Shown here in pieces: positions 1 through 36,451 of a DNA stretch of 64,000 nucleotides (position 1 is its first letter; the number at the start of each line of letters is the position of its first letter). Position numbers and translations under genes: made by a program. Source of the stretch: a virus (Duplodnaviria > Caudoviricetes); the IMG/VR virus record IMGVR_UViG_3300005077_000001, positions 128,001 to 192,000 of that record; one strand, 5' to 3'. The notes beneath the pieces are model-generated. The model saw only the letters and a list, made by a program, of their open reading frames with translations. It did not search any database and had not been told where the DNA came from.

Positions 1-2
1 AA

Positions 3-3000
3 TTTGAACAACTAGCTCGTCAATTGTATGTGTTAAAAGAGACAAATTGGGGATTAGACTATATTTCTTATCAAGTAGGAATGGGTAAATTTCCTGGTTC
101 ACTAGAACGAGCTAGAATGGATGAATCAACAGGTATGCTTCTACCTGGGTTAGGTACTCCAGGTATGAATTATACCCCAATAATGGAATCTAGAGCATCT
201 GGCTATGACGAGTTTGGAAATGTGAAATACGAAGACGTACCTCAACCAATGCAGCCGGGAAGCAGGTTATGGCAAGAAGCTATTTTACATCCTGGGAAAG
301 CATCCTACTATAATTGGCTTGCTAAGGAAGAACAAACTAAAGCATTACAAGATAGAGAAGATCAGAAATTAGAGCAACAAAAAGGTATAGCAAAGCAAGC
401 TCAGACATCCATTGTAGAAGCTCTTTATGAGCCATCTCTTCCTGAAGGATTTAGAGAAGTACTAAATAAACAGAGATCTAAATTAGAAGAAGATTTGAGA
501 AGAGCAAGTGAAATAGAAGAAGTTGGGCCTGATAATATTTTGAAAAGGAGAGGCTTTAAATCTTTAAATGATCTTAAGGGTTTATCAGATGCCATAAAAA
601 ATGCACTTAAAGCCGAAGATAGAAAATTAGAAGCTACTTATATATGGATGCCTATAGTAGATGCTATTAGAGATTTACATGGTGCACTAACAGGTGAAAG
701 ACCTGAAGGAAGCAAAGAAGAACAAAGAATGCGCGCATTCTACAATAATCCAGAACAATATTATTATTCAAAAGCAGCACAACTAAGCCAGCATTATATG
801 GGACAAGAAGGTACAAGTGTAATAGAAAATACTAATTTAACTAATACTTTATCCTCTATAGAAAGTAAACCTTACAGTATACCTGTTGGTCAATATGCGG
901 GTTATCAAAGCAAGTTAGGTTCAAGAGATACTAATGAGATATTAAAATCTATATTAGAGGTGTTAATAGGGTGTTGCAGAGAAGGTAAAGTTGGTTCTGG
1001 GAGATCATCAGGAACATCTGATACAGGAAAAGAAAGATCGCCTATAAGCCAAGATTCAGGCAGCGCATCTGGGAGTGCAGGTGTACAAACTTTTGACTAT
1101 GGTACTCCAGATTATCAAAAACTAGTTCCAGTAGGAAATACTGCCTATTCTGTTGGCTCATCCACCACTAAATCTTCTACTTCTGCCGGTTCTGGATCAG
1201 TTCAGTCTTGGGTAAAAAGTGATGGTACAGTTGTGGGAGTACCAAAAACCCAAGTAGATGCAATGTCCTATTTGAAACATAGAGGCTATCCTGATGAGAA
1301 ATTAGATGACATTGCTGAAAGATATAAACGTCCTTTACCTATAGGAGATTATTCTACCGATAGTGTTATGATGGCGGCATCTAGAGCTTATGCTAGTACT
1401 GGAAAGTACTTTAGGCCTAGTGAAGCCTATAATAGTGATTTTGATTGGAGAGTTAGACAAGAAGGTAGTCTTCTTGATATTGGAATATCTAGACTTAGCG
1501 ATAATAGGTTCCTATATTCTGATATTAAAGCTCAGATGGAATCTGGTAAAGGAGCTGGTTGGCTTGATTCAGAATCTAGATTAGCTCTAATATTAGCGCA
1601 TGCTCCTTCTCTTAACATAGGGGGCAGACAGACTGTAATAGGGGAGTCTAATCCTTTAAGTATGGCGTTTGTTAATCTCTCTAAAGCACGTATGGATCAA
1701 ACTGTTGCCCATGAATTATTTGGACATGGTATGGAGACTTTAGGTGCAGCTGAATTACGTGGGGAACAAGGTATTTCAATTGGGGCGACACCACGAGTTG
1801 AGTATCTATCGAAAGTATTAGAATTGATAAAATCTCAAGTAGGTGAAGCTCCATTTAGAACAATTACTAATCAACTAATTAAAGATCCTCAGTTATATCC
1901 TGATTTATTCAAAGGGCAAGGTAAAGAAATAGAAGATGCCTATGCTGCTTATGTGAATAGATATCCTCGTGGGAATGTTCCTACTTTAGAACTTCTAAAG
2001 ATGCAAGAGAAAGCAAATAAACTCCCTCTAGACTTATCTCCTAATTCTTCTAATTGGTCTCGTTTGACCGAATATATGGCAATGTTTGCTGAAGGAGAAA
2101 ATACTCCTTATGGAATACCTACTGAAACTTGGCTTCGTGTGGTACGTAATGTTTCGCCTAGACATTTCGAAGGAGTAGATAAGTTCCTATCTTCTAGATT
2201 TGCTAATGATAATCTATCTGATTCTGAATTAATGAAAGAATATAGAATTGCAATTAATAAAATTAAATCAGAAGTTTATACCCCTGCTCATTTAGTAGAA
2301 CAAAAAGAAGTCACACAACCAGTTGTTAGCCCAATTGATAAAACGTTAGCTTCAATTGGAAGAATTCCAGATTTAAATTGGAAAGTATTTTCTGATGAAT
2401 TTAAAGAACGAAATAAGATAGGAATGGGTGACAAACTAACCAAACTATTTAATAATGTAGGCGATAGTATTAAAAAAGTTGTGTTAGGAGATGATACAAA
2501 AGTAGCTTTACAGAAATTTCAAGGTGTTGTAGGAGCAGTAGAAGTTGAAGAAAATAAGTTTACAAACGATTTATCAAAAGCTTTAGAATTAAGATCTAAC
2601 GTTATTTCTCAAGTCCAAGAAAGTATAGGCTTAATAAAAAGCAAACGAACACCCTTAGTTAGTAGTCCCCTCATTAGAAAAGATTTGATTGGAGCAGGTC
2701 CAACTGGTGTTGAGTTACTAGAAAATGAAAGACAAACTGGAGAGTTAGTTTCCAACATTATAGCAAGCAATCTTTCTAAAGCCTATCAACTTCCTTTTAC
2801 GGATAGGACTAGAAAGCTATTATCTAATGAACAAATTGATATGGGGTATAAAAAAGATTTACTCAATCTTACTCCTACGCTACCTATGATAGAGGAAAAT
2901 CAAAAAGACGAATATAAAAATAAATTGTTTATTCCTATAATGAAATCTCCATACTCTGAATTAGCTAGAAAATTTTCCAATGAGGCACAAGCACACCCTG

Positions 3001-6000
3001 AAGTAACTTCAGAAGCCATACCATTAAGAAATGAAGTATTTTCTATCACAAAAGAAATGGCTGGTACTGGACCTACTGATGTTTCCTTGGATACAAATGA
3101 ACCTGTAGACTACACATCTCCAGCAGGAGTAATACCTTTTGTATCTACTCAAGGATATCAACGGACTTTACCATCCTCAAATCTTCCTTTTATGATGGGG
3201 CTATTTAGAGGAAGAACTAATGAGCCTTTTAAATTTGATGGAGGGTCATCTTTATTACCAGGTGTTGATAGACGTGTAATGTTACCAGAAATTAAGGATA
3301 AATATCCTTCAATGCTTAAAGCTTTTACTAATATGCAATCTCCTATATACCATTATAAGGGTATAGCTAAATGGAATGAAGGAAAACCATATATCAATAT
3401 ATATAATTCTGATAAGATATCGCTAGAAGAATTTTTAAAAAGGGCTAAACACGAGATAAACCATTTAGTATTATATAGATTATACACTTCTCTAAATAAA
3501 GAAGAAAGAGATTATTTAAAAACAGAATTGGAAACTACACCTTTCTCAAAAGATTTTCTTCCAGACATAGTTGATATGGTAATAAAAGGAGCTGGTGGAT
3601 TTAAAATAGGAAAAGAGTTATTAGCCATGTCCACTGAACGAGGATTAATGTCTGATAGTCCTATATTAAGAAGATTACAAGAAATCACATTATCGATTTA
3701 TAAAAAACATGAAGCAGAATTAAAAGATGTTCATAAGAAAACTATGTCTGGCTCTTCTTCTTTGTTTGATTTATCAACAGCAAAATATATATTAGAAGAT
3801 ATTAAATCAGATCCTTTAAAACAATCTTTGGGCGCAGGTGCCGAAGGTAAGATATATACAAGTCCTAAATACCAACATTTAGCTGTAAAGGAATATGCTC
3901 AACCAATATTTGGATATCAAGATTGGTTAGATCGTGGAAATGAAATAATGCAGAGATTGCACGGTACGTCTCTATTTCCAGAAACATCTTTAAATTATGA
4001 TGATAAAAAAGGCGTTTTTATAGAAATTATGGAACGGTTACATGGAGAAACTGTGCATAATTCTGTTGGTCAATCAGGTTTTAATAAGTATGAGGTACTA
4101 AAGGATTATAAACAAAAAATTTATGAAATGTTGAAACGTAAAGTATTTCCAGTAGATTCTCATCTTAATAATATATTTTTGGAAAGTTCATCTAAAAAAC
4201 AGAAATTTATAGACTTAGGATCTTTAGATTTAGGAGAAAATGTTGAATATATAAATGAAATTTTAAAAGACATAGGAGTTAATCAATATTCTAATTACTT
4301 AACTAATGATCACTCAGCTAAAATAGAGCAATCAAAAATAGCAATAGAAGCTTATGCTGGGCCTGTTGTTGATATTCAAAAAAAAATGACGGCTGGTAAT
4401 AAAAAGATTTTAAAAGAGATTTCGATTCCAAATTTGGAAAGATTAATTCCTCTTTTTAAGAATAAAACACTAAAAGACATGTTTCAAAATGCTTTAGATA
4501 CAGCTAAACAATATGCTGGGTCTCCTTCACTCTTAAAAGGTCCAAATGATTTTCCAACTTTCTTAAGCGGTCTACATCCAGGAATGGCCCCTGAACAAGC
4601 CATTGATGCAGCTATGGCGGCTAACAAACAATCTATTGAATACTTAGGTGGCCCAGAAAAAGCGGCGGGTTTCTTAGAAGGGTTTAAAACTCCATTATTA
4701 GAAGAAACACAAAAGAAAATAAGAGATATTATGAGAGGAGAATTTGGTGGTTCTTCCTCACTAACTAGTCATTTTATGAATAGTTTACGAAGGATGCCGC
4801 AGTCTTATGAGGCTGTTAAATCTCTTCATTCTGGGGTTAGAAACTTAGGTCTTCAAAACCAAGTTAATCTATTTGGTGGTGGAGTAAGAGATATTTTAAG
4901 AGGCGAAACACCAAATGATTATGATGTACAAGTTAGAAGCCAAGAAGCATTGGATCTATTAAGAAGTAAAATGCCTTGGGATCTTTATAAAGTCAATGAA
5001 GCTTTTGATGTTAAATCTTATATGCTTCCTACAAGGAGAGAGTTTTTATCTACATTAGTGAATGAGCTTATAAAGCATACTTTTTTAAGCAAAACAGTAG
5101 GAAGAGCACAAACAGCACATCAAGTAACACAAGATTTAAATACACTTTTAGGCAAAGATATTAAGAGAGAAGTTTTAGATAGATTTGGAGGTAGTTCTTC
5201 TTTATTTGATATGTCTCCTGATTTTAAAATAGATTTAAGTAAACCTATAATTGATATACCAAAGATTCCTAAGATACCTAGAATACCAAAAACAGGGTAC
5301 TATCCTAAAGGTAATTTAGATACCTATTATGATTCTATATTTGCAACTCCAGAAGAAAAACGAAGTATATCTTGGAATGAAAGATTCAATGTAGATTCAC
5401 TAGTTCAAGGACCATTTGAAAACCTATATGATGACATAATGCGTGATAAATATGCTCCTAGAACCCGTCCAAGTATAAATTTTAGAAATTTATTTAGTGC
5501 TCCTCAATTTAGAAATATATTTTCTAATTTAAAAGATAGTGGAAGTGTATTTTTTGGTGGTACTGGGAAAGCTCAAAGTACACAAGTGGAATTAAAAACA
5601 TCTAAAGATATAGAAAGATGGTTAAGACAATTCACTGAAGCTGAAGTAATGCAAGTTGCACAAGAAAGCCATAGATTAACTGGGGATTTAGCAGGTCGTC
5701 AAGCTCCTACACAAGAAACTGCAAGGGATTATATACTTAATATACTAAACGATATTGCTCAACGAGAAGGTGGTAAACTATTAGCTGGGACTGGAATAGC
5801 TAAGAAATTCTTACAAATTATTGCTCCTGATCTAACTCCTTCGTTATTTACTGGTCAAACTTCAGAAGGTAGTATCAGAAGAGGCCATAGCTTTGGAAGA
5901 CCTAGTGCCACTTTCGGAGGAGGTAGAGTTTCTATTACTGAAAGTGTTGCTGGAACAGGTGCGGAGAAACATGAATTTGGAGAAGCACTTTCTGATGTAG

Positions 6001-9000
6001 CTATCCAATTATTACATCAGCGTTTTGAAACCGGTACTACTTCAAAAGAGCAACTAGCTTATGAAGATTTAATGCCACTAATAGAGAAGTCTGCACCTAA
6101 AACTGCACAAGAAATAAAGGATCAAATGGAACGTAAACTGGCATATCCTACGGAAGGTGAAAAGTTTAGTGAAGTTTTAGCGGATATTATGGGGCAACAT
6201 CAAGAAAAGTTGGTAGGTAATCTAATATTAAAAAACAATATTACTCCTGAAGAATTCATGGATATACTAAAGCCTACTGGAAAAGAAAGTGGTTATGAGG
6301 AATTCATTACTAAAGAAGCTTGGCATAAAGTATTGCAAGAGCGTTATTATGAAACACCCAGAGGGGAGGGAGAAGGTGCTATGCCAGAACTCCCACGTGG
6401 GTATAAGTTAGAAAAAGGGGTTGGTAGATTAGGATATCGTACAGCAGGAGCGGCAGAAAGTTTACTCCATGTTCCAATGATTGGTAGCCCATTGTCTTTA
6501 GTAAGTGCTGCATCCAAACTAACAGAAGGAACTAGATTTAGTTCTCCTTTCCAAATAGCAGAAGAAGCAATGATGACTATGCGTGGTCCACTCGGTATGG
6601 CTGCTAGATTTCCTTTTGGTATGGCGGGTATCTTTGCTGGTTCTGCGTTAGGAAAAGGACAAGAACTAGGAGAGAAATTAAATATTAACCCTCTAACTGG
6701 CACTCTACTTGCTTCACCAGAAGAATTATTAAATTTTCAATTATTTAATCTTGGAAGCCAAGCTGAGTTCTTTGGAAAAACACCTTTATCTAAAATTGGA
6801 AAGCCTATTGGTCCTACTTGGATGCACGGATGGGGAGGAAATTTATCACCAGAATTACAGGTGAAAAGAGCAATAGCTGAAGCGGGAACACTTAGAGGAG
6901 GAGCAGCTTCCCTGCTTAAAACGGGTGGTAGCTTAGTAAAAGGTACTGTAGCAATGGAAGCTCTTAGTCCTGTTGGGGAATCTATTTTTGGTTATATTAA
7001 TGAAAGATACGGAAAAGAAATAGATGAGAAATTAAAAGGAATAATGGGGGAAGATACTTATAAAAATTTTGCTTTAACTACGAGTGGTATAGCTAGACAG
7101 TTTTCTTACATATTTAGTAAAGTAGGAGAAGCTGCAACTAGTGTTCCTGGGGGAGAGTTAGCTAGCTTCGCTATTAGCGGAATAAGAACCAACATGAGTC
7201 GTTTAATAAGTGACAGAATAGATACAAAAGCAATAAAATCCGCTAAAGAAAATATTAGAAGCTTAGAACAACAAATGCAAGATTTTCCTACATTTAAACC
7301 TTTCTATGAACAACAAATACAAGAAAAACAACTTAATATTGAAGCGTCTGGTCGATCTATGGGGGATAGGTTATTAGAAAGGATGATGGGGCAGAGGTTT
7401 GGAGAAGGAGCTACTAGCACAAGGGTTGAGGATATACAACAAAGAATTGACTGGATGAAAAAAGCTTTAGCAGGAGGAACATTAGAAACTAAACCATCTA
7501 TCCCATTTGATTTGGGTCCTCTAAACTTCATAAATGATTTACTACCAAAACCTGAATTAGATGATAAGCGTAAATGGGAAGAAGTAATACCTGAAGGTGC
7601 CCGCAAACAATTATTAGAGAGGGAAATAAAAAAATTAGAAGCTCAAATGCAAACTCCAACTGCTATTGGAAATTTACCTAATATTAATGATTTTATGTAC
7701 GAAAAAACAGAAAAAATTGTTAATATGAGAAAAGAAAGAATGGATTTAGAAGATGAATTAAATAAGCTTATTGGCGAAGATCCAATGGGCGGCCAAACGG
7801 GCCCAGCCAGAGCTGGTATTAGAAATAAAATAGCAGATTTAGACAAAAGAATAAATCAAGAAGTTCAAGTAACTGATAATTATTATAAATTAATAACTGA
7901 GGCACAAAAAGCACAAGTCTCTTCTACACAACCGCAGATTCTGGCTGAACCGGCACCTGCCCAATTAGAACCTGGTACTGAAGTTAAGCCACCAAAAGAA
8001 AAAGTAATGATGCCTGGTATTTTAGGAGATTTGATTAAACATAAATATGCACCACAAATTGTAGCATTAGTTGGTATGATTCCTAAACCAAAAGTTCCAG
8101 TTAAAACATTAGCTGATACTCCAAAAGAAGAGATAGAAAAAGCTTTAGAACTTGCTAAATCTGAACGAGGTAAAGCTTATAACGATTACTATAATTCCCA
8201 AGAGTATGAAAAAAATAAGGAATTGATGAATGATATCCTTAATTCTAAACCTGGGTCAAAAGAATGGCGTGAAGCGTCAGAGAGGTATAAACACTACACT
8301 ACTGAAACTACATCTCATCTAAATCTTAAAGAATCAAGAGTATTTGAATTAGAAAAAGAATTACAAAAAAGGGATGAAAAGGCAACTGAGGTAAGAAAAA
8401 GGTTAAAAGATAGAGAGAAAGCAATTAGTGATGAGAATAGTGAGATAGAGAAAAAGATAAGATTCATTTCTAAAGATAGTAGGGTTAGTGAATACCCACA
8501 AGCTGATTACTTTAAAAATAGAATTGATACAACAACAGAAGATATAGAAAAAAGAAGAGATAAGAACCGAGCATTGTTGGCTGAATATGCCTATAATTTA
8601 AATCAACCCGGATTTGAGGCAAACGCTACTAAAAGTGAAGATGTTCTAAATGAAAAAACTTGGAATCGTGAATACGGAACATATGAACCTGTGCGTATGC
8701 CTAAAGCTGTACCGTTTATTAAGCCATTTGATCCGTATGAAGCAGAACGTGCTCAGTTAAATATGTGGGGGTATACTCCTTCACAATTATATAAAAAGAC
8801 TCATCCTAAAGAACGAACTCCGTTGAGATTACCTGGAATGGGATTTGGAGTAGTGTTTACTGCTGGTGGAGCTAGAGAAGAAGGTTCTGGTGGAGCTTGG
8901 GATTTAGGCAGCTCTTTTATGTCTGATCAATCAGATTATAGAAATGCTGGTTTTGGATATCCAAAAAGAGAAATGGATGATAGAACAATAGGTGCTTTAA

Positions 9001-10997
9001 GTCAAGCAGAAAAGGCTAGACGAGAGTATATGGGGCTCTTAATTAGGGCACATACCCAATTTGATTCAACGGGCAGTAAAGGTTCATTCCCAGCAGGAGT
9101 ACAAAAATTATTAGATGAAGCAAAACTTAAGCAGCGTTATTATGAACGTAGAGCATCTCAATTTGAGCACAACGAAAGAGCAGTAAGAAACGGAGAAATG
9201 GTAAATGGTAAGTCTGTTACCATGGATACCCCCGGCTATATGGGAATGAATGGTGATTGGATTTATAAAGAACACCCTGATGATGCTAAACTTCGTATGG
9301 ACTGGGAAGAAAGAGATAGAATAGCTAGGAATAGATATGATCAAGAACATTTCCTTGATGGAACTAATATTTTAGGCGGGGCTCCTAATGAAACAATGAA
9401 AGAAAATGCGTATTTGATGGGGTTACCACATGATAAACAACAAGCTTTACAGCAATTAAAACAATATGGATACTCCCAAGATAAATTAAATCAGATTGGT
9501 GGAATATTACAATCAGGGAAATCGCTAAAACAGGTGGGGTTAGAAGGGTTAGCTCAGAATCAACAAGCAATTTTGGATTTTTGGAAAAATGCTAAACCTA
9601 CGAGCATGATGTCTCAAGAAGAAATAGATAGAAAACGAAATGAAGCGGAACTGACAATGCAACAATATAATGATAAATTAGGACTTTCACAAAATAACCG
9701 GGGTTGGGATGATAAGGCGTATGGAAGATACATAGCTCAAAATGCAAGACCAGAAGTTAGTCATTTGATGGTTGATTATTATAGAAAAAGGCATGGGATG
9801 ATCAATGCAAGAGAAGATTCTTTTGAAAATTCAAGAGAACAATGGGAATATCGTAGAAAAGAAGTCGGAGATTTATCTGATGAGGAGAGAAATGCAAGAG
9901 ATCAAAGGTTAAGAGAAGGAATACCTAATTCTGGAGATTTTGATAGAGATACTTGGGAAGAAACTAAACGGATGCAGGATTACTATTTTAGTAAATGGAG
10001 AAAAAACAATAAAGATAAAGCTAATTGGTTTATAAGCACCGAACAGAAAAACCCTGCTATGTTTAGAACTGGTTATATCCCTGCTCAAGAATACGATCCT
10101 ATATTTAGTAAAGGTGGTGGTTTATATTCATATTATCCGAGCCCTTATGGTAAAGGAGTTGATACTGCGGTAATGCAAAATACATACGCAAATAGAACAG
10201 GTATGATGTCTGCTAATTATGGATATACTTATAAACCTAATGCAAATGAGACAGTGACTGTTTCTCCAATGTATTGGTCTAATGAACAACAACCAGTAAA
10301 TCCAATGGGACTCCCTGACTACGGATATGTGTCTGGTGTATCAAAAGGAACTGTTGGTGAACAATGGGATCGCATGAATGCTGCCGGTGCTTTTAGAAAT
10401 GATAGTGAACGATTTGGTGCCTTAGCTGGTATATATAAACAACAAGGTTATTCAGATACCGATATAAATAAAAAAATATATGAACAATTTGGTGAAAAAG
10501 GGCTAAAGGGGCTAGAACAATCACAAGCTACAAAAGTATTTGTTACCAATTTTCCTGATGATGTTAACGAAAGAATGCGTCAAGATTTTGGTGACCTACT
10601 TAATAAAGTAGCACAAAGTATTTCTTCATTACAAGAAACAATTAGCAGTAGTCTAAAAATAGAGTTTCCTCAAGATATGAGTGTGAGAGTTAATAACTTC
10701 AATGATTTAAATTTTGGTGGAGCTGGTGCTGCGGGTAGTAATGAGAAACTGTCTGCAGATGTAGATCAAATTAGATCTGATTTAGAATTAGTTAGAGCAC
10801 AACTTCCTAATGTATCTACAGATTTCCTATCAAATATTGAGGGTACTTTAACTAATCTGACTGATTCTATTACTAGAGAAATAACGAGAGTGGATGCTTT
10901 AGAGACAGTTATAGGAAAGCTTGATGCTAAAAGTAAAGATCTAAATAACAGACAAAATGACACTGAATTATTCCCAAAAGGAGAGGCACCTTTTTAA
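3..10997 (+). CDS. Giant tape-measure-like / polyvalent virion protein (5'-truncated, >3657 aa) with zincin metallopeptidase, protein-kinase-like and nucleotidyltransferase motifs
   Basis: Frame is open from base 3 (FEQLARQL...), so the true start lies upstream. Motifs: HELFGH (1710), HEINH (3450), GAGAEG/AVK/DSHLNN/DLG (3831-4220), GGGVRD...DYD (4875-4925), HEFGE (5970). Long charged helical stretches. Lies directly upstream of baseplate-hub-like genes, the usual tape-measure position. Confidence 0.65.
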   Translation, partial: FEQLARQLYVLKETNWGLDYISYQVGMGKFPGSLERARMDESTGMLLPGLGTPGMNYTPIMESRASGYDEFGNVKYEDVPQPMQPGSRLWQEAILHPGKASYYNWLAKEEQTKALQDREDQKLEQQKGIAKQAQTSIVEALYEPSLPEGFREVLNKQRSKLEEDLRRASEIEEVGPDNILKRRGFKSLNDLKGLSDAIKNALKAEDRKLEATYIWMPIVDAIRDLHGALTGERPEGSKEEQRMRAFYNNPEQYYYSKAAQLSQHYMGQEGTSVIENTNLTNTLSSIESKPYSIPVGQYAGYQSKLGSRDTNEILKSILEVLIGCCREGKVGSGRSSGTSDTGKERSPISQDSGSASGSAGVQTFDYGTPDYQKLVPVGNTAYSVGSSTTKSSTSAGSGSVQSWVKSDGTVVGVPKTQVDAMSYLKHRGYPDEKLDDIAERYKRPLPIGDYSTDSVMMAASRAYASTGKYFRPSEAYNSDFDWRVRQEGSLLDIGISRLSDNRFLYSDIKAQMESGKGAGWLDSESRLALILAHAPSLNIGGRQTVIGESNPLSMAFVNLSKARMDQTVAHELFGHGMETLGAAELRGEQGISIGATPRVEYLSKVLELIKSQVGEAPFRTITNQLIKDPQLYPDLFKGQGKEIEDAYAAYVNRYPRGNVPTLELLKMQEKANKLPLDLSPNSSNWSRLTEYMAMFAEGENTPYGIPTETWLRVVRNVSPRHFEGVDKFLSSRFANDNLSDSELMKEYRIAINKIKSEVYTPAHLVEQKEVTQPVVSPIDKTLASIGRIPDLNWKVFSDEFKERNKIGMGDKLTKLFNNVGDSIKKVVLGDDTKVALQKFQGVVGAVEVEENKFTNDLSKALELRSNVISQVQESIGLIKSKRTPLVSSPLIRKDLIGAGPTGVELLENERQTGELVSNIIASNLSKAYQLPFTDRTRKLLSNEQIDMGYKKDLLNLTPTLPMIEENQKDEYKNKLFIPIMKSPYSELARKFSNEAQAHPEVTSEAIPLRNEVFSITKEMAGTGPTDVSLDTNEPVDYTSPAGVIPFVSTQGYQRTLPSSNLPFMMGLFRGRTNEPFKFDGGSSLLPGVDRRVMLPEIKDKYPSMLKAFTNMQSPIYHYKGIAKWNEGKPYINIYNSDKISLEEFLKRAKHEINHLVLYRLYTSLNKEERDYLKTELETTPFSKDFLPDIVDMVIKGAGGFKIGKELLAMSTERGLMSDSPILRRLQEITLSIYKKHEAELKDVHKKTMSGSSSLFDLSTAKYILEDIKSDPLKQSLGAGAEGKIYTSPKYQHLAVKEYAQPIFGYQDWLDRGNEIMQRLHGTSLFPETSLNYDDKKGVFIEIMERLHGETVHNSVGQSGFNKYEVLKDYKQKIYEMLKRKVFPVDSHLNNIFLESSSKKQKFIDLGSLDLGENVEYINEILKDIGVNQYSNYLTNDHSAKIEQSKIAIEAYAGPVVDIQKKMTAGNKKILKEISIPNLERLIPLFKNKTLKDMFQNALDTAKQYAGSPSLLKGPNDFPTFLSGLHPGMAPEQAIDAAMAANKQSIEYLGGPEKAAGFLEGFKTPLLEETQKKIRDIMRGEFGGSSSLTSHFMNSLRRMPQSYEAVKSLHSGVRNLGLQNQVNLFGGGVRDILRGETPNDYDVQVRSQEALDLLRSKMPWDLYKVNEAFDVKSYMLPTRREFLSTLVNELIKHTFLSKTVGRAQTAHQVTQDLNTLLGKDIKREVLDRFGGSSSLFDMSPDFKIDLSKPIIDIPKIPKIPRIPKTGYYPKGNLDTYYDSIFATPEEKRSISWNERFNVDSLVQGPFENLYDDIMRDKYAPRTRPSINFRNLFSAPQFRNIFSNLKDSGSVFFGGTGKAQSTQVELKTSKDIERWLRQFTEAEVMQVAQESHRLTGDLAGRQAPTQETARDYILNILNDIAQREGGKLLAGTGIAKKFLQIIAPDLTPSLFTGQTSEGSIRRGHSFGRPSATFGGGRVSITESVAGTGAEKHEFGEALSDVAIQLLHQRFETGTTSKEQLAYEDLMPLIEKSAPKTAQEIKDQMERKLAYPTEGEKFSEVLADIMGQHQEKLVGNLILKNNITPEEFMDILKPTGKESGYEEFITKEAWHKVLQERYYETPRGEGEGAMPELPRGYKLEKGVGRLGYRTAGAAESLLHVPMIGSPLSLVSAASKLTEGTRFSSPFQIAEEAMMTMRGPLGMAARFPFGMAGIFAGSALGKGQELGEKLNINPLTGTLLASPEELLNFQLFNLGSQAEFFGKTPLSKIGKPIGPTWMHGWGGNLSPELQVKRAIAEAGTLRGGAASLLKTGGSLVKGTVAMEALSPVGESIFGYINERYGKEIDEKLKGIMGEDTYKNFALTTSGIARQFSYIFSKVGEAATSVPGGELASFAISGIRTNMSRLISDRIDTKAIKSAKENIRSLEQQMQDFPTFKPFYEQQIQEKQLNIEASGRSMGDRLLERMMGQRFGEGATSTRVEDIQQRIDWMKKALAGGTLETKPSIPFDLGPLNFINDLLPKPELDDKRKWEEVIPEGARKQLLEREIKKLEAQMQTPTAIGNLPNINDFMYEKTEKIVNMRKERMDLEDELNKLIGEDPMGGQTGPARAGIRNKIADLDKRINQEVQVTDNYYKLITEAQKAQVSSTQPQILAEPAPAQLEPGTEVKPPKEKVMMPGILGDLIKHKYAPQIVALVGMIPKPKVPVKTLADTPKEEIEKALELAKSERGKAYNDYYNSQEYEKNKELMNDILNSKPGSKEWREASERYKHYTTETTSHLNLKESRVFELEKELQKRDEKATEVRKRLKDREKAISDENSEIEKKIRFISKDSRVSEYPQADYFKNRIDTTTEDIEKRRDKNRALLAEYAYNLNQPGFEANATKSEDVLNEKTWNREYGTYEPVRMPKAVPFIKPFDPYEAERAQLNMWGYTPSQLYKKTHPKERTPLRLPGMGFGVVFTAGGAREEGSGGAWDLGSSFMSDQSDYRNAGFGYPKREMDDRTIGALSQAEKARREYMGLLIRAHTQFDSTGSKGSFPAGVQKLLDEAKLKQRYYERRASQFEHNERAVRNGEMVNGKSVTMDTPGYMGMNGDWIYKEHPDDAKLRMDWEERDRIARNRYDQEHFLDGTNILGGAPNETMKENAYLMGLPHDKQQALQQLKQYGYSQDKLNQIGGILQSGKSLKQVGLEGLAQNQQAILDFWKNAKPTSMMSQEEIDRKRNEAELTMQQYNDKLGLSQNNRGWDDKAYGRYIAQNARPEVSHLMVDYYRKRHGMINAREDSFENSREQWEYRRKEVGDLSDEERNARDQRLREGIPNSGDFDRDTWEETKRMQDYYFSKWRKNNKDKANWFISTEQKNPAMFRTGYIPAQEYDPIFSKGGGLYSYYPSPYGKGVDTAVMQNTYANRTGMMSANYGYTYKPNANETVTVSPMYWSNEQQPVNPMGLPDYGYVSGVSKGTVGEQWDRMNAAGAFRNDSERFGALAGIYKQQGYSDTDINKKIYEQFGEKGLKGLEQSQATKVFVTNFPDDVNERMRQDFGDLLNKVAQSISSLQETISSSLKIEFPQDMSVRVNNFNDLNFGGAGAAGSNEKLSADVDQIRSDLELVRAQLPNVSTDFLSNIEGTLTNLTDSITREITRVDALETVIGKLDAKSKDLNNRQNDTELFPKGEAPF

Positions 10998-13703: not shown

Positions 13704-14927
13704 TTGAGAGTATTCGTTAAAAATCAAAGAAATAAACCATTAATGCCAACAACTCCGGCAAAAGCTAGAATTTTGCTAAAGCAAGGAAAAGCAAAGGTTG
13801 TAAAAAGAACCCCATTTACAATTCAATTACTTTATCCAACCGGAGAAACTAAACAAGAAATTACTTTAGGAGTAGATACTGGGTACAAATTCATTGGGCT
13901 TTCAGCAGTTTCTAAAAAAGAAGAATTATTTTCAGCTCAAGTAGAATTAAGAACAGATATTTCTAAATTACTTAAAGAGAGAAGAATGTATCGAAGGGCT
14001 AGAAGAGAAAGAAAAACTCGGTATCGTAAACCTAGATTTCTTAATCGTGCAAATGCAAGAAAAAAAGGACGATTGATGCCTTCAGTTCAACATAAATTAG
14101 ATTCTCATATCAAACTCGTGAACAAAGTTTCTGAATTATTACCTATTTCAAAAGTTCGAATGGAAATTGCAGCCTTTGACATTCAGAAAATAAAAAATCC
14201 TGAAATAAAAGGAAAAGGATATCAGAACGGAGAACAGAAAGGGTTTAGTAACACCAGAGAGTATGTTTTGTACAGAGACAGCCATAAATGTCAACTTTGT
14301 AAAGGAAAATCAAAAGACAAGATTTTGAATGTGCATCACATAATTTCAAGAATCGAGGGAGGAACTAACCAGCCCGACAACTTAATTACGTTGTGTAAAA
14401 CTTGTCACAGTGAATTTCATAAAGGCATAGTAGAATTAAAAGCAAAACCTAAAAAGAGTTTCAAAGCAGAAACTTTAATGTCTATAATAAGATGGAGAAT
14501 AATTGACCAACTTAAAGCACTGTATATAGATGTTGAAACTACTTACGGCTATGAAACCAAAGAAAAAAGACTAGAATCAGGGATAGAAAAATCTCACATT
14601 AACGATGCTTTTGTTATAGCAAACGGTTCAATACAGAAAAGGAATCAATCGTACCTAATAAAGCAAGTGCGAAAGCAAAATCGTAAACTATTTAAAGGAG
14701 CTAGGAGTCATATTAGAAATACTGCTCCACGATTTTTATTCGGATTTCAGAGATTTGATAAGGTGCTTTTTGAAGGAAATGAGTATTTCATATATGGTAG
14801 ACGAGTAATAGGTAGATTCAAGTTATTTTCTTTAGAATCTGGGATAATAAAAGAAGAACCTAGTTATAAAAGATTAAAATTACTTGAAACAAAAAATACG
14901 TTTGTTATTAATTTAATAAATAGATAA
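13704..14927 (+). CDS. iscB: IscB RNA-guided endonuclease (PLMP/RRXRR + split RuvC + HNH)
   Basis: N-terminal PLMP motif, RuvC-I LGVDTG, Arg-rich bridge helix RRMYRRARR, RuvC-II MEIAAFD, HNH CQLC...VHHI...GGTN..DNLITLCKTCH, RuvC-III SHINDA. TTG start after AGGAG. Confidence 0.93.
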   Translation: MRVFVKNQRNKPLMPTTPAKARILLKQGKAKVVKRTPFTIQLLYPTGETKQEITLGVDTGYKFIGLSAVSKKEELFSAQVELRTDISKLLKERRMYRRARRERKTRYRKPRFLNRANARKKGRLMPSVQHKLDSHIKLVNKVSELLPISKVRMEIAAFDIQKIKNPEIKGKGYQNGEQKGFSNTREYVLYRDSHKCQLCKGKSKDKILNVHHIISRIEGGTNQPDNLITLCKTCHSEFHKGIVELKAKPKKSFKAETLMSIIRWRIIDQLKALYIDVETTYGYETKEKRLESGIEKSHINDAFVIANGSIQKRNQSYLIKQVRKQNRKLFKGARSHIRNTAPRFLFGFQRFDKVLFEGNEYFIYGRRVIGRFKLFSLESGIIKEEPSYKRLKLLETKNTFVINLINR

Positions 14928-16034: not shown

Positions 16035-16781
16035 ATGAGCACATGTAATTGTTGCATAGTATATGATTTATCTGTATCAGAAGGTAATGCAATATTAACT
16101 GGAGTTAATTCTTTAAATATTGATACAAACCTTACCTTCGACTGGTGGGATGAGACAGATAATGAATGTAATCCATATAATACAAAATTAGATTTAATTG
16201 GCCCTGCTATTACTTCATTACAACTGACAGCACACCCATTTGATAATGATAGTATGGAAGAATACGGGTATACTATGGGATTCTCTTGTCCATTTGAATT
16301 ATCTGTTTCAATTGGATATAAATTTATTAATTCTTGTAATGAATGTGTGGATTGTATCGATCCTATAACCGGCGAAGTAATAGGAAGACGTAGAGGTCGT
16401 TGGATAGGTGTCCCCAATCGTAAGAGAGACATAAAAATAACTGGAAACATAGATGACATCCCTTCTTCATTAATGGAATTTGGAGATAGGTTATATAGAG
16501 TAAATAAACTCAATGTGCAAGCAGGACAGCAACCTTTTATTATACCTCCAATTACTTATGCCTATAAGAGTGTCAAATATAAAGGGGGCCCGTTGCTTGT
16601 GGATACAACACAGGATTTTGTGTACGAATTCAGTGTTAATTCTGAAAAATCCTGTCAAGGAATGTTAAAAGTAAATAATATTGAGGCATATCTCACTAAT
16701 TTTACTTGGAAATTTGAACCCCCAAATCCACCAACTTGTAACTATACCTTCAATTGGTATACTGCATTTTGTAACATTTAA
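16035..16781 (+). CDS. Cys-rich putative tail/baseplate protein
   Basis: 248-aa ORF starting 1 bp after the upstream stop, in the structural operon. No family recognised. Confidence 0.4.
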   Translation: MSTCNCCIVYDLSVSEGNAILTGVNSLNIDTNLTFDWWDETDNECNPYNTKLDLIGPAITSLQLTAHPFDNDSMEEYGYTMGFSCPFELSVSIGYKFINSCNECVDCIDPITGEVIGRRRGRWIGVPNRKRDIKITGNIDDIPSSLMEFGDRLYRVNKLNVQAGQQPFIIPPITYAYKSVKYKGGPLLVDTTQDFVYEFSVNSEKSCQGMLKVNNIEAYLTNFTWKFEPPNPPTCNYTFNWYTAFCNI

Positions 16782-16794
16782 AAAGGAAGAGAAT

Positions 16795-17889
16795 ATGGAA
16801 CAAAAAAAATGGACAAAAGAGGAAGAGGAATCACTTAAGCAGCTTTATTTTAAAAATACAACTTTAGAAATAGCCAATATTCTTGGAAGGAGTGTATGGT
16901 CTGTGCAGAACAGAATTAGAAAATTAGGTATATCTGGTAATAAATACTGTAAGTGGACTGAAAAAGAAGAGAATAAACTAAAAGGATTATATTATTCCAC
17001 AAATATTAAGAATTTAGAAACTATTTTTCATAGGAAAGCAAAAAACATACAAACAAAAGCTTCAACGATGGGCCTTTTTTCAAATAGATATTGGTCAAAG
17101 GAAGAGGATCTAGTTTTAATAGAACAATACCCTACTGTTGAAACAAAAAAATTAGTTAAAATGTTAAATAGATCACGTAACGGAATTATTCAAAGAGCTG
17201 GTTTTTTAAACATTAGCAAGGCTGAAGAGTGTAAGTTTAAACACCTCAAAAAGTATAGATGTAACGATTCTTATTTTAACATTATTGATTCTCCTGACAA
17301 AGCTTATTTTTTAGGATTTTTATGGGCAGATGGTAATATTCACAACTCACGACATTCTATTAAGCTCTCTCTTAATATAAAAGATAGGGTTGTTTTAGAA
17401 AAATTTAAATATTATATAGAAGCGTCTAACCCAATTTATACTAGATTAAAAAACAATTGCTGTACATTCACAGTGTTTTCTAAACAAATGTATATTGATC
17501 TTATAGATAAGGGTATTACCCCAAATAAAACATATGGAACTACAATCCCAAATAATATTCCAAACGACATGTGCTCCCATTTCATAAGGGGATTATTTGA
17601 TGGTGATGGTGGAATTTATAATAGATTAAGAAAGAATAAATATTTAGATTCTAAAATAGATATAAGTAATAATGAATCTACAATAAATTGGCTATATGAT
17701 GCTGTTGATATAAATTGTGGTATTAAAGGAACTAAAGATAAAAGAAAAGGAGTTCATTGCTGGAGATGGTCCATCTATTCTAGATTAAATATTATTAATT
17801 TTGCTAATTATATATATAAAGATTCAAAAGATCTTTATTTAGAACGAAAACATAATCGTTTTATAGAATATGGTTTACTGGAGAAATAA
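16795..17889 (+). CDS. Free-standing LAGLIDADG homing endonuclease with three N-terminal Myb/SANT-like repeats
   Basis: AYFLGFLWADG and HFIRGLFDGDG motifs. Repeats KWTKEEE, KWTEKEE, YWSKEED. ATG at 16795 follows AAAAGGAAGAG. Confidence 0.85.
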   Translation: MEQKKWTKEEEESLKQLYFKNTTLEIANILGRSVWSVQNRIRKLGISGNKYCKWTEKEENKLKGLYYSTNIKNLETIFHRKAKNIQTKASTMGLFSNRYWSKEEDLVLIEQYPTVETKKLVKMLNRSRNGIIQRAGFLNISKAEECKFKHLKKYRCNDSYFNIIDSPDKAYFLGFLWADGNIHNSRHSIKLSLNIKDRVVLEKFKYYIEASNPIYTRLKNNCCTFTVFSKQMYIDLIDKGITPNKTYGTTIPNNIPNDMCSHFIRGLFDGDGGIYNRLRKNKYLDSKIDISNNESTINWLYDAVDINCGIKGTKDKRKGVHCWRWSIYSRLNIINFANYIYKDSKDLYLERKHNRFIEYGLLEK

Positions 17890-19782: not shown

Positions 19783-20787
19783 ATGGAAAGAAGACGTTGG
19801 ACAAAAGAAGAGGATATAACATTAACTGATTTATATAATTCTAATACTCCTAGATCCATTATATCTAGAATACTTGGTAAAGGAGTTTCTGCTATAAAAT
19901 CTAGAGCTATGATTTTAGGATTATCTAGAAATAATATTTTATATTGGACTGAAGATGAAATTAATTTATTACTTAATTTAAACAAAGAACGAATTTCGAT
20001 TAAAGAAATGTCAGAAAAATTAAATAAGACATCCAATTCAATTAGATGCCAGCTACAAAGATTAAAATTGAAAACTAATGAAGAGGATTTATTAGAAATT
20101 AAAAATGGGAAAGTGCATAAGAATAATAGGTACGGAAGAGCAAATAAAAAATATTATTTTAATGAAAATTATTTTGAAAAGATAGACTCTCACCAAAAAG
20201 CATATTGGTATGGTTTTTTATGGGCAGATGGGTTTGTATATAGAAGGAGAGAGAATTACGTTACAGGGCTTTTATTAAAAGATCCTGAACCAGTATATCA
20301 GTTTAAAGCAGACCTTGGTTCAGATCATCGCATATACATAAATGAAAATAGTTTTTCTATTAGACTTACTTCAGAGAAAATGTTCAAAGACTTGGAAAAA
20401 TTAAATATTATACCTAGAAAAACCTATGCTAACCTAAGACCAAAGATTACAGAAAACTATGTTAATAGTTTCATTTTGGGGATGTTTGATGGGGACGGTA
20501 GTATTAGTATTAATAGGCGATTATCCTTAAATAATTATTATTGCACGCATTATAATCTTAGTATAGCTAATAGTAAAGCTACTTGTTACTGGTTAAAAGA
20601 TGTTATTAATAGTAATTTGAATATATATAGCTATGTACAATCAAGAAAAGGGACTGTTGGTTGTGTATGGAGAACTAATAGCAAAAAGAGTATTTCTAAA
20701 TTTGCTGATTGGGCTTATAAAGATGTTGATTTCAAGTTGGAAAGAAAGTACAACAAATTTATTCAGTCAGGTATTCTGGATAAATAA
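19783..20787 (+). CDS. Free-standing LAGLIDADG homing endonuclease with two Myb/SANT-like repeats
   Basis: AYWYGFLWADG and SFILGMFDGDG motifs. Repeats RWTKEED, YWTEDE. C-terminus LERKYNKFIQSGILDK resembles that of 16795..17889. Confidence 0.85.
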   Translation: MERRRWTKEEDITLTDLYNSNTPRSIISRILGKGVSAIKSRAMILGLSRNNILYWTEDEINLLLNLNKERISIKEMSEKLNKTSNSIRCQLQRLKLKTNEEDLLEIKNGKVHKNNRYGRANKKYYFNENYFEKIDSHQKAYWYGFLWADGFVYRRRENYVTGLLLKDPEPVYQFKADLGSDHRIYINENSFSIRLTSEKMFKDLEKLNIIPRKTYANLRPKITENYVNSFILGMFDGDGSISINRRLSLNNYYCTHYNLSIANSKATCYWLKDVINSNLNIYSYVQSRKGTVGCVWRTNSKKSISKFADWAYKDVDFKLERKYNKFIQSGILDK

Positions 20788-30769: not shown

Positions 30770-33700
30770 ATGGCATATACTTACGTATTCCAGGTGGAAT
30801 CATCTGGCACTTTAAATCCGGGTGGTTCCACTATTTCAGGAAGTACAAATATTGCATATTCAAATGCATTCTATACTTATTGCCCTCAAGGAGGAGTAAC
30901 TCTTTTTAGTTATCCAGAAGATGGAACAACCTTTTCTGGGATTAACTCATGCTATGATTATCCTATAAATGGCACAAATGCTATTACACAAAACCCTGAA
31001 TGTACCTATGAGGCAATAGGGTTATATGATTATAAAGTCTCAATCCCAATTTCCTATATCAATGTAACTCCTGCTTATCTTTTTACCCTACCCGTTAATT
31101 CTAAAATCATATCAATAGAATCTGAAATGATAACTTCCTTTAGTGGAGGATATCGACAAGATTTAACTTTATATTCTGGATTTCAAAATGAAGCGGCTGG
31201 GGTTACATACATCTCGGGGGATAAACTATTAAATGGGGAGTATATTACGCATGTTGGGTGTAATATTTATGACCCACATTATAATGATCCAACGACTTTC
31301 AATTTAACAATAAAAATTTGTGAACAGACTAGTGCTTCTGGCTTTAATCTGACAGATATTTTATCAGCAACTCACAGTGGTACTGGGCAAGAGTGGTTTA
31401 AATTAACTACTCCAATAAAAATACCTGAGTCAGGAGATTATTCTTTGGGGGTTTATTCCTCAAGTGTACTTTATGGGTTTAGTTGCCCAATGGAGAATAG
31501 ACATTCCTATTCAAAGGTAGGAGATTGTAGTGGTACTTGTGATGATTTCTTATATGAATCAAGCTACTACCACTCATGTACAGCTTATTACACTCCTTCA
31601 TACTCTATAGGGACTCTATCTGATTCTGACTTATTTTTGCATAAATTGAATATTGTAGAAAACACAGATCAGTATTGCACATCGGGGTATGTTGAATCCA
31701 ACACTGGAGTTTATTTAAACAGTACTTGCTTTCATCCTGATACTGTTGGGAGTGGAATTTTAACTTTTAATTGCCGTCAGTACGTGCCTATAACACTATC
31801 TGGTAGTAATGTAGTTTATCCTGGTAATTTTCAAATAACTTCTGATTCTCCTTCCAATACACTATCAGGAAACGTAGTATACTACTTATATTCAAAATCT
31901 CTGGAATCCAGTATAGTAGAACAAGTGTCCGAATATGTGGATAATTTGTATTCTATTTCTTATAATTATGATTGTGGTATAAGCGGTTCTTTTCCTATCC
32001 ATTCTTGCATAGATAGCATAGAAACACAGGTTAATGAATATATGTTTAATCCAGAGATTGATATAAGTGGCTATGTATTGGTAATAAGCTTTAGGAAAGA
32101 AACCAATTTAATAGAATATTCTATTATTACTGCTGAAACTTATTATTCCATAATAAAATGTTTCAGTGGATTTATGGGAAAAGCTGCAAATTGTTGGAGT
32201 TGTGATTATTTCCTTTATTGCGGATGCGATGTTAAAGGCTCTATTAATATTATGAGTTTCAAAAAAGATGCAGTTACAATGAGGGAATACTTACTTGACT
32301 ATTTATCGTTTTTAATTACAGATTATAATGTAAATTCTCATTACGCATGTGATTCATATAGGCTTTCTAGAATTGATTATAATTCTCCTTACATAAGTGA
32401 TATGTCCCCTCCCGGTAATTCTATTCTTAATGATAGATTTCTTAATAACGTATCAGATGAAGGAAAAATTATATTTAATCTGAGAGATGCTAGTACTAGT
32501 GTATCAGGTTTGAATACTAATATATGGATTAAACGACAAGATTATTTTACTTCCTCTACTGATGTTTATGACAACTTTAGTTTTTATACAAATGATTATA
32601 AAACCACAACCAGTGGGTATGGATGGAATACTTTTAACGCAACTAAAGCTTATAAATTTATTACGAATGAAAATTATATAAATCTACAATCCTATCTTGA
32701 TAGAATATACCATAGAACTGATTCTATATGCAATATTAGTGGTACCAATGCATTAGAAATTACTACTAGTGGAAACACTGCATTAACATCCTCTCCTATG
32801 CTATATTGGACTATTCCGTCTGGATATACTACTTGGAGTATGGATACTAAATTACAAGTCTATCGGGATACCCTAAATGAGAACCAATGGGCCGGAATTG
32901 GAATTAGTACTTCTCCAACTGTTACTTCAGGTAATTATATATATTTAATGGCTAGCACAACTAGTGGAGGTCGTCACATAATTATTAATAGTAGCACACC
33001 ATCTTACACTACATCAGGAGTCAGACCCTATCCAGACCCATACGAATACTATTTAAGAATGGACAGAACCGGAAATTCTTTAAGTTGTAAATGGTCAATA
33101 GACAAAACCAATTGGACTACTTTAAAAACAGTGACATTAACAGAATACAGTTCTGATTTATATGTGGGCCCATTGGTTATAAACACTAATACCAACAATT
33201 CTAAAACAACTGCTTACTTTGATTATATACATATTAATTGTTCTGGAGTTAATAATTTTATTTCTAGTACAGATTCATGGGAATTACTTACATTCCAAGG
33301 ATCACAACTAAATAATACAAGTAATACTGGAACGACTATTTTTTCAAAAATGAATAATTTATTATACAATTTTTCATATGAACTAGAAGAGAGTCTACCA
33401 TTAGAACCTAATGAGCAAGTGTATATTAGAATAGAAACATCAGATAAAAAAGACTTGCAATTACAATACACACCAGAGGATAGCCTGTTATTTATTTCTT
33501 CAGATATACCTATGTTATCACCATTATCTACCCGTGTTAGCGGTAATATAATAGATATATCTCCTTACAACCATACTATAAATTGTAATAATGGCGTTGT
33601 TGGTACGTATCGGCCTTTTCCTACTTACACTCAAGGTTGCCAAGATATGTATATTTCTGATGCAACATTATCGGGAATTTATCAAGGAACTTCCAGTATA

Positions 33701-35515: not shown

Positions 35516-36451
35516 ATGGCTAAAAAATGGACTGAGGAAGAAGTGAATATACTTAGAGAGAATTATGGGAAGATGAGTAATAGGGAGTTGGGGAATATAT
35601 TAAAAAGAACAACTTGTGCTGTTCAATCTAGGGCAGTTAATATGGGTATTTCTATAAAAAAAGAAACGATACCAGATAAGTGGTCAGAAGAAGAAATACA
35701 GATTTTAAAATGTAATTATAAAGAACAAGATCATAAATTTTTAAGTAAAAAATTAAATAGAAGTATTTCTGCTATTAGGCATATGGGTAGGAAATATAAT
35801 TTAACATCCCTTTATAATAATTACTCTTTAAATGAGGATTATTTTTCAGAGATAAATGAAAATACATTATATTGGGCCGGTTTCATTGCTGCTGATGGTT
35901 CAATTTCCGTAACAAAAAAAGGATATTCGTTAAATATAGGATTGAGTATTAAAGATAAAGTTATATTAGACCGTTTTAAAAAAGAACTAAAATACGACGG
36001 ACCAGTAAAAATTAAAACATCAGAAAAGATATGCTATTTATATGTTTATTCTAAGAAAATTATAGAAGATTTAAATAATAATTTTAATATCGCACCTAGA
36101 AAAACTTTTATTTATGTACCTCCACCATTACCTGATAATTTAAAAAGTTCTTTTGCTATTGGTTTAATAGACGGAGATGGTCATATAGGAATAAGTAAAG
36201 AAGGATATTTACATATTTCTTTATATGGAAGTTTTAACACAGTTCTTTGGTTCAAAAAATTTGTTAATCAGATTGTTGATGCACCTAATAAAATAAAACA
36301 ACAAAAAAATAGTTATGCTTTTGTGATTAAGGGTAAAAAAGCATTGAAATTAGGAGAATATTTAAATTCAATAAACGTTCCTTTTAGATTAGAAAGAAAA
36401 TGGAATAAAATAGAAGAATGCAAGAAATTAAATAATATAGGAGAACTATAA
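35516..36451 (+). CDS. Free-standing LAGLIDADG homing endonuclease with two Myb/SANT-like repeats
   Basis: LYWAGFIAADG and SFAIGLIDGDG motifs. Repeats KWTEEE, KWSEEE. AAAGGTG RBS. Confidence 0.87.
   Translation: MAKKWTEEEVNILRENYGKMSNRELGNILKRTTCAVQSRAVNMGISIKKETIPDKWSEEEIQILKCNYKEQDHKFLSKKLNRSISAIRHMGRKYNLTSLYNNYSLNEDYFSEINENTLYWAGFIAADGSISVTKKGYSLNIGLSIKDKVILDRFKKELKYDGPVKIKTSEKICYLYVYSKKIIEDLNNNFNIAPRKTFIYVPPPLPDNLKSSFAIGLIDGDGHIGISKEGYLHISLYGSFNTVLWFKKFVNQIVDAPNKIKQQKNSYAFVIKGKKALKLGEYLNSINVPFRLERKWNKIEECKKLNNIGEL

Follow-up and report, generated by a model that had tools for sequence, protein, structure and literature searches.

What does a phage build into the last third of a tape-measure protein that runs to 12,315 residues, and could that part be meant for the infected cell? 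The question is raised by a 64,000-nucleotide (nt) stretch of an uncultured phage genome (hereafter the window; bases 128001-192000 of the 256,335-bp single-contig IMG/VR record IMGVR_UViG_3300005077_000001), at the left edge of which a single + strand frame stays open from base 3 to a stop codon at 10995-10997. Tape measures are usually viewed as rulers and channel formers. From the letters of the window alone, an original prediction had read this frame as a tape-measure-position protein stacked with three peptidases, a kinase-like domain and a nucleotidyltransferase (NTase) motif, which might be delivered into the host at the moment of injection. Our analysis favors a closely related explanation, to which we assign a probability of roughly 0.55 as a whole: this is a third of a tape measure carrying enzyme-like modules that are delivered into the host and released there.

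We began from the extent of the frame. The open reading frame (ORF) of >3.6 thousand amino acids (aa) that had been described at 3-10997 was correctly located but greatly underestimated, being merely the C-terminal 30% of a 12,315-aa ORF. The 5′ sequence missing from the window was recovered from the record, where the frame continues without interruption to an ATG at genome position 102050, 25,951 bases upstream of the window. From there to its end at 138997, the ORF comprises 12,315 codons, encodes a protein of 1,377 kDa (1.38 MDa) and occupies 14.4% of the genome. A frame of this size invites the suspicion of an assembly artefact or chimera, since the contig is derived from a metagenome and belongs to the linear class of IMG/VR records. 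We nonetheless consider such an artefact highly improbable, because chance cannot produce a 36.9-kb stop-free frame at 33% G+C and a mis-join would break it, composition and skew are even throughout the window (including the end of the ORF and the genes that follow), and CheckV rates the record as 97% complete.

The assignment to a tape measure, originally made from gene position, could be placed on a firmer footing. Pfam searches of tiles covering the upstream 8,650 residues located a PF10145 (PhageMin_Tail) domain at approximately aa 5630-5826 of the whole protein, with an E-value of 1.2e-27 and 97.6 bits against a cut-off of 33.2. A six-frame search of the genome returned this as the sole PF10145 match (102.7 bits, E 2.8e-30), within a 12,316-codon open frame. 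Because the only PhageMin_Tail domain of the genome sits in the same uninterrupted frame, the giant ORF is the phage's only tape measure. Downstream lie fibre-like genes with lectin and Ig-type domains (LamG/ConA-like and Big_1), which are typical fibre domains.

Upstream of the window, the same chain already carries enzyme domains. RNA_ligase (E 9.7e-9), the LigD 3′-phosphoesterase LigD_N (E 5.8e-15) and RVT_3/RNase H (E 5.7e-22) domains were detected above their Pfam cut-offs at aa ~3026-3852 of the giant ORF, with two further two-motif zincins (aa 3580 and 3947 of the whole protein) near the RNase H domain. A DFDGD sequence at aa 1994-1998 drew an RNA_pol_Rpb1_2 match below cut-off (E 0.0057), and the region containing it gave no PDB sequence match.

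Within the C-terminal third, all five motifs named in the original prediction were found at the coordinates it had given (nt 1710, 3450, ~3810-4300, ~4860-4930 and 5970). They define a module order of zincin (HELFGH), zincin (HEINH), kinase-like module lacking a C-lobe, NTase head and putatively decayed zincin. The corresponding features, in window coordinates, are as follows.

3..10997, + strand: C-terminal 3,664 codons (412 kDa, 30%) of the tape-measure ORF, defined by the open frame, with the PF10145 core upstream
1500..2162 (approximate), + strand: zincin-like module 1, with HELFGH at nt 1710-1727 and EYMAMFAE at nt 2070-2093
3240..3254, + strand: junction peptide 1, FKFD-GGSSL-LPG, from a pattern scan
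3255..3749, + strand: zincin-like module 2, ~165 aa, with HEINH at nt 3450-3464 and ELLAMSTE at nt 3615-3638
3750..3764, + strand: junction peptide 2, KTMS-GSSSL-FDLS, from the same type of scan
3765..4745, + strand: protein-kinase-like module, with a catalytic core at nt 3831-4235 and then a helical tail
4746..4763, + strand: junction peptide 3, GEF-GGSSSL-TSHF, pattern scan
4764..5186, + strand: minimal class-II-type NTase module, ~140 aa, with its metal-binding motif LFGGGVRDILRGETPNDYDV at nt 4872-4928
5187..5204, + strand: junction peptide 4, DRF-GGSSSL-FDMS, pattern scan
5970..6185, + strand: degenerate zincin-like relic, with HEFGE at nt 5970-5984 and EVLADIMG at nt 6171-6194

We compared motif frequencies with chance expectations obtained from shuffles of the whole 12,315-aa protein. 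HExxH occurs three times against 0.16 expected and HExxxH once against 0.14, whereas the single HExxE (0.8 expected) is at chance level. The 12,315-residue chain contains five instances of a second motif, E-x-[ILMV]-A-x3-E, and four of these follow the four HExx(x)H sites at a distance of 55-120 residues, two of the pairs falling in the C-terminal third (HELFGH followed by EYMAMFAE at +120, and HEINH followed by ELLAMSTE at +55). Random placement yielded four or more such pairings in 0 of 200,000 trials, a figure to be taken as indicative given that the second motif was defined after the sequences had been seen. The fifth instance (aa 8463 of the whole protein) has no HExxH upstream and falls within a coiled-coil region, and we attribute it to chance. 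Two of the three predicted peptidases, HELFGH and HEINH, are thus supported as putative zincins by a non-randomly placed second motif. The third did not hold up as an enzyme: the ligand position is lost in both HEFGE and EVLADIMG, and the site is at best the relic of a decayed zincin copy.

No profile in Pfam, PHROG or NCBIfam matched the zincins, tblastn of their tiles against phages gave noise only, and for module 1 family, PDB and phage comparisons were all negative. Self-BLAST and pairwise comparison gave nothing significant to suggest that the zincins are internal paralogues, an idea that we set aside. For module 2, the named neighbors in language-model space are polyvalent-protein domains (LPD23, LPD1 and LPD5). 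The secondary structure of its AlphaFold prediction, an unusable model at a predicted local distance difference test (pLDDT) score of 41.6, consists of three strands, a helix bearing HEINH and a helix bearing ELLAMSTE, an order that agrees with the zincin fold.

The kinase-like module is supported by catalytic motifs, by weak but consistent matches to phage kinases and by language-model features. The motifs GAGAEG...AVK...DSHLNN...IDLG at nt 3831-4235 provide a Gly loop, the AVK lysine, an αC glutamate, D-x4-N and DLG in canonical order and spacing (aa 1277-1411 of the window protein), and the composite pattern occurs once, where 0.005 occurrences would be expected. The sequence 3′ of this catalytic core shows no resemblance to a kinase C-lobe. 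ESM-atlas language-model features scored 0.98 to OspG/RIO/ABC1/Kdo kinase clusters, with nine of the ten best named matches to the kinase tile in one clan. When the tile was compared with GenBank phages by tblastn, 15 of 17 weak matches were annotated kinase genes of Bacillus siphophages. The two that we inspected, Chewbecca gp11 (Tsamsavirus, 224 aa) and vB_BcoS-136 gp061 (210 aa), have a catalytic core of the same size and share with the module GxGxxG, the αC glutamate, a hinge of the form MERxHGxTV, P-x-D-x-H-x-x-N and D-x-G; in a three-way alignment the catalytic positions were all invariant, and BLASTP of the module against a phage kinase gave 38.5 bits. These phage kinases differ in being only 21-24% identical and in being encoded by free-standing early-region genes rather than forming tape-measure modules. 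All catalytic motifs of the predicted kinase-like domain are therefore present, but no profile scored above its curated cut-off: Pfam ABC1 on the catalytic loop reached E 0.008 (15.7 bits against 22.9), an OspG_kinase hidden Markov model (HMM) found no match in the genome, and the kinase tile had no PDB sequence match.

A comparable picture emerged for the NTase. Its motif, GGGVRD-x9-DYD at nt 4872-4928, fits the class II pattern hG[GS]-x9-13-Dh[DE]h, in the form hG[GS]-x11-DhD, and GGxVRD occurs once against 0.02 expected. The 25-40 residues around LFGGGVRDILRGETPNDYDV were matched by four independent libraries, in each case below the curated cut-off. Among PHROGs, phrog_1614 ranked first (E 4.6e-5), followed by two tRNA-NTase families; NCBIfam PcnB matched at E 0.002; and Pfam PolyA_pol (PF01743) matched at E 0.005, with 17.6 bits against a cut-off of 23 over profile positions 3-45 of 126. 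All six PDB matches were to poly(A) polymerases or CCA-adding enzymes, in alignments over the metal-binding motif, which agrees closely with that of E. coli poly(A) polymerase (lvGGGVRDlLlGkkPkDfDV, compared with lfGGGVRDiLrGetPnDyDV here). The nearest ESM-atlas clusters were Gad2 and PolyA_pol, a resemblance (atlas score 0.88) that we treat as a lead only. Class II enzymes such as PcnB and CCA-adding enzymes differ in extent, since the module here has ~140 aa, the match ends after ~40 residues and there are no neck or body domains. What had been called a nucleotidyltransferase motif is thus intact at its metal-binding residues but does not extend to a full PF01743 head domain above cut-off.

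Might these modules be no longer enzymes at all? If they were decayed or structural remnants, the third would mainly add length or a tip-binding surface, and no enzyme would act in the host. Such a reading would accommodate the clear degeneration of one of the three zincin sites, the sub-threshold level of every family match, an NTase module shorter than a normal head domain, and the fact that purifying selection cannot be shown without homologues. It sits poorly, however, with the intact kinase catalytic residues, the intact G-G/S...DxD of the NTase and the intact ligand motifs, both of them, in two zincins. Histidine makes up only 1.1% of residues, making accidental HExxH sites less likely, and the N-terminal cargo domains are well above Pfam cut-offs. 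On balance, we judge it quite improbable that the modules are remnants.

A further feature lies between the modules. Four short peptides of the form G-G/S-S-S-(S)-L exactly flank zincin 2, the kinase-like module and the NTase. Four copies were observed against 0.086 expected in the whole protein, all of them within 650 aa and nowhere else. The four junctions are encoded by different codons, and conservation is thus at the level of the protein and does not reflect a recently copied DNA repeat.

We next turned to the composition of the chain. Only 2 of its 12,315 residues (0.016%) are cysteine, compared with 1.585% across the other 143 ORFs of ≥150 aa, a depletion of ~100-fold. The two are neighbors, forming a CC pair at aa 324 and 325 in window-protein numbering (nt 972-977). 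Near-absence of cysteine is what we would expect of a chain that is kept unfolded or metastable and crosses an oxidizing compartment, and because the depletion covers the enzyme modules equally, it argues that these modules travel with the tape.

This bears on whether the C-terminal third might instead be a separate product, arising through cleavage during assembly or through internal initiation and serving as a tail-tip or central-fibre component or as a non-virion early protein. Both lambda gpH and T5 pb2 are cleaved in tail morphogenesis, and the lumen of a tail tube is too narrow for folded globular domains. Length points the same way: an α-helix rises 1.5 Å per residue, and 12,315 helical residues would imply a tail of ~1.8 µm. 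A separate product is nevertheless hard to reconcile with cysteine depletion that is uniform over the whole frame when neighboring giant ORFs contain 1.1-2.6%. In addition, a scan of window positions 1-10997 found no stop in the frame, no + strand terminator-like site inside the ORF and promoter-like sites at chance level only; one candidate copy of a 'late promoter' motif, at nt 837-862, was discarded as chance, a match also being found in 22 of 100 shuffles. We therefore regard a separate product as unlikely.

Are there precedents for a tape measure that delivers enzymes into the cell? To our knowledge, phage P23-45 offers the only case in which a tape measure has been shown to carry a cytoplasmic enzyme. 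Its gp96, a tape measure of 5,002 aa, has at its N-terminus an active virion RNA polymerase of the two-barrel kind (Chaban et al. 2024, PMC10770324). Like gp96 (and its counterparts in P74-26, G20c and TSP4), the protein described here is a giant enzyme-fused tape measure whose enzymes would serve the very start of infection, and both combine a metallopeptidase (putative here) and hydrophobic segments in the same chain, with DFDGD lying upstream here. The protein here is 2.5 times longer, and it adds RNA ligase, LigD 3′-phosphoesterase, RNase H, kinase-like, NTase and several zincin modules, none of which has been reported for gp96. The parts that we searched showed no similarity to the phage collection or to the PDB.

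A second precedent concerns the tip. T5 pb2 is a 1,219-aa tape measure with one muralytic domain after a hydrophobic stretch (Linares et al. 2023, PMC10038345). It is cleaved in tail assembly, and its C-terminal metallopeptidase piece is held in the tip, is expelled first and probably needs refolding (PMC10038345). In both pb2 and the protein here, the tape measure bears a metallopeptidase motif toward its C-terminus and ends in a coil, which in pb2 docks in the hub. They differ in that the enzymes here precede a Gly-rich segment and are of cytoplasmic type, and in that cleavage is here only proposed.

The pb2 comparison also suggests a different role for the zincins, as peptidoglycan peptidases that ease the tip through the envelope rather than processing proteases, with the GGSSSL peptides being plain flexible linkers. 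The C-terminal metallopeptidase motif of T5 pb2 is indeed muralytic and expelled first, the metallopeptidase domain of P23-45 gp96 is described as 'characteristic of many TMPs' (tape-measure proteins), and the zincins here lie in the tip-proximal third. We still find a cell-wall role unlikely: two more two-motif zincins occur in the N-terminal cargo block beside RNase H, far from the tip; no peptidoglycan-hydrolase family in Pfam or NCBIfam matched; and the zincin copies are interspersed among cytoplasm-type enzymes, as in polyvalent proteins.

Polyvalent proteins, to which the original prediction had likened the chain, contain 1-5 zincin metallopeptidase (MPTase) modules interspersed among other domains (Iyer et al. 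2017, PMC5512222). The MPTase signature comprises a three-stranded sheet, a HEXXH helix and a later helix with a glutamate, a HEXXXH variant being known, and the same proteins include kinases without a C-terminal lobe and Pol-beta nucleotidyltransferases (PMC5512222). Processing by the MPTase after transfer has been proposed, and N4-type virion RNA polymerases are found fused to an MPTase (PMC5512222). The chain described here likewise places unrelated catalytic domains in one polypeptide, with interspersed zincins, a HEXXXH variant, a kinase-like module lacking the C-lobe and a putative Pol-beta NTase. Polyvalent proteins differ in being described as packaged in the head or transferred by conjugation, and a tape measure is nowhere mentioned in PMC5512222. 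The comparison thus fits at the level of architecture but not at that of families, since the MPTase-PolyVal, LPD1 and LPD23 models gave no match in the genome.

Enzyme-fused tape measures and polyvalent proteins are each known, but we did not find the two combined in one chain in the literature searched. Nor does that literature describe a tape measure that contains a kinase and an NTase, has dedicated junction peptides or is nearly devoid of cysteine.

By analogy with P23-45 gp96 and T5 pb2, on which the case for delivery depends, the phage probably pushes the enzyme modules into the host ahead of its DNA. In the mechanism that we propose, the C-terminus would sit in the tail tip and exit first on tail opening, as in siphophage tape measures. 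The chain would travel unfolded or metastable and refold in the envelope or the cytoplasm, where the zincins may cleave the polyprotein, the GGSSSL junctions being the likeliest sites, in line with the processing theme of polyvalent metallopeptidases. Freed kinase and NTase could then modify proteins or RNA of the host, or weaken its defences, at a stage when no phage gene is yet expressed, acting beside the N-terminal RNA-polymerase motif (for which evidence is weak), the RNA ligase, the 3′-phosphoesterase and RNase H.

A more far-reaching version of this proposal, which we put forward only tentatively and think rather doubtful, is that the entire protein is a self-dismantling polyprotein. 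Here the cysteine-free chain would be threaded unfolded and cut by its zincins at the junctions, releasing at least six enzymes as an 'early proteome'; these would be the RNA polymerase, RNA ligase, 3′-phosphoesterase, RNase H, kinase and nucleotidyltransferase. If so, the tail would serve to inject proteins no less than to conduct DNA.

Several results count against delivery and release of active modules and lower our confidence in it. No homologue was found in any database searched, and hence there is no sign that the modules or junctions are conserved. GenBank phages yielded none by megablast or tblastn, and 1.84 billion cluster representatives yielded none when queried by phmmer with aa 1000-2199. 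Word-indexed searches were equally empty, whether made with the stretch as a whole, with the kinase tile or with the last 1,065 aa of the protein, as were scans of metagenomes from IMG/VR and JGI for patterns taken from the cassette and from the tape-measure core; for want of a homologue, an alignment was not possible. In the C-terminal third, every Pfam, PHROG and NCBIfam model stayed below its curated cut-off, and the HMMs for MPTase-PolyVal (PF18818), LPD1 (PF18796) and LPD23 (PF18838) matched nowhere in the genome at E ≤ 10. For zincin 2 and the kinase, the tiles were modelled by AlphaFold as single sequences, and both models were unusable, the kinase tile reaching a pLDDT of 37.9. The phage kinase matches are individually non-significant at database level (tblastn E 0.2-4). 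The NTase match spans 25-40 of ~140 residues, and a third carboxylate could not be placed. To these may be added the after-the-fact definition of the second zincin motif, and the hydropathy profile: no segment of the C-terminal third is strongly hydrophobic, values >1.4 being confined to segments that lie upstream.

Collectively, a single tail protein that takes up 14% of a jumbo phage genome joins a tape-measure core to the complete repertoire reported for head-packaged polyvalent effectors. If its modules are delivered and released, the tail would offer a route for several pre-made enzymes, with a bearing on how phages pre-empt defences and start transcription, and the range of functions that giant unannotated tail genes in metagenomes may encode would widen. 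The junction peptides and the near-absence of cysteine provide testable handles on processing and on unfolded translocation.

The remainder of the C-terminal third includes charged helical stretches, and proline-free runs in the window protein are 45-80 aa long. Three segments stand out there.

6420..7022, + strand: Gly/Ala/Ser-rich, mildly hydrophobic segment, aa ~2140-2340, with hydropathy of 1.1-1.2, the highest in this third
8301..8456, + strand: heptad-like charged helical segment, aa 2767-2818, whose crude heptad score exceeds the 99.9th percentile of shuffles
10692..10955, + strand: C-terminal heptad-like helices, aa 3564-3651, from a crude heptad scan

The hydropathy of the Gly-rich segment is below the transmembrane threshold, and the segment showed no significant similarity to the upstream tape-measure core; the strongly hydrophobic, glycine-zipper-like segments of the whole protein lie at aa 4221-7342. 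A second tape-measure core within the C-terminal third was sought by self-BLAST and pairwise comparison, with nothing significant. Of the 'long helical/coiled segments' described earlier, the crude heptad scan bears out coiled-coil-like character at aa 2767-2818 and 3564-3651 but not elsewhere. The helices at aa 3564-3651 are a candidate trimeric coil that may dock in the tail-tip hub, a role suggested by analogy with the tape-measure C-termini in T5 (pb2) and 80alpha.

By inspection of the sequence, we also noted a recurring motif of the form LK-x-x-GY-[SPT]-x-x-x-[LI], present four times in this third, which resembles motifs of the helix-extended-helix or SAP type.

nt ~1284, + strand: LKHRGYPDEKL, aa 428
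nt ~8769, + strand: NMWGYTPSQL, aa 2923
nt ~9468, + strand: LKQYGYSQDKL, aa 3156
nt ~10446, + strand: YKQQGYSDTDI, aa 3482

Several neighboring genes complete the setting. A few genes upstream of the tape measure, within the structural region, lies a PAS-HisKA-HATPase_c sensor histidine kinase (L001:10057-11502; genome 94057-95502, + strand). A 579-aa 'tube' candidate and chaperone candidates, likewise upstream, had no family match and no PDB match, and the sheath family PF04984 was not found, which is only weak evidence for a non-contractile tail. On the 3′ side, an 837-aa gene is followed by a 407-aa ORF (window 13704-14927, + strand) that strongly matches HNH-endonuclease PHROGs (phrog_119, E 1.4e-68). 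Five paralogous free-standing endonuclease genes, combining phrog_4645 with the D5-like helix-turn-helix phrog_323, are dispersed in the tail and structural operon and look like homing-endonuclease insertions.

Window 16681-17889: endonuclease paralogue (phrog_4645, phrog_323)
Window 19783-20787: endonuclease paralogue (same families)
Window 35516-36451: endonuclease paralogue (same families)
L001:5430-6617: endonuclease paralogue (same families)
L001:7293-8300: endonuclease paralogue (same families)

Two adjacent giant ORFs on the + strand, at window 39734-46957 and 46966-53694, encode proteins of 2,407 and 2,242 aa with 1.5% and 1.1% cysteine, respectively, and had no match in Pfam or PHROG. 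Finally, a 1,565-aa protein encoded at window 30770-35467 (+ strand) carries Laminin_G_3 and GH43_C2 ConA-like lectin domains and is probably a fibre or receptor-binding protein.

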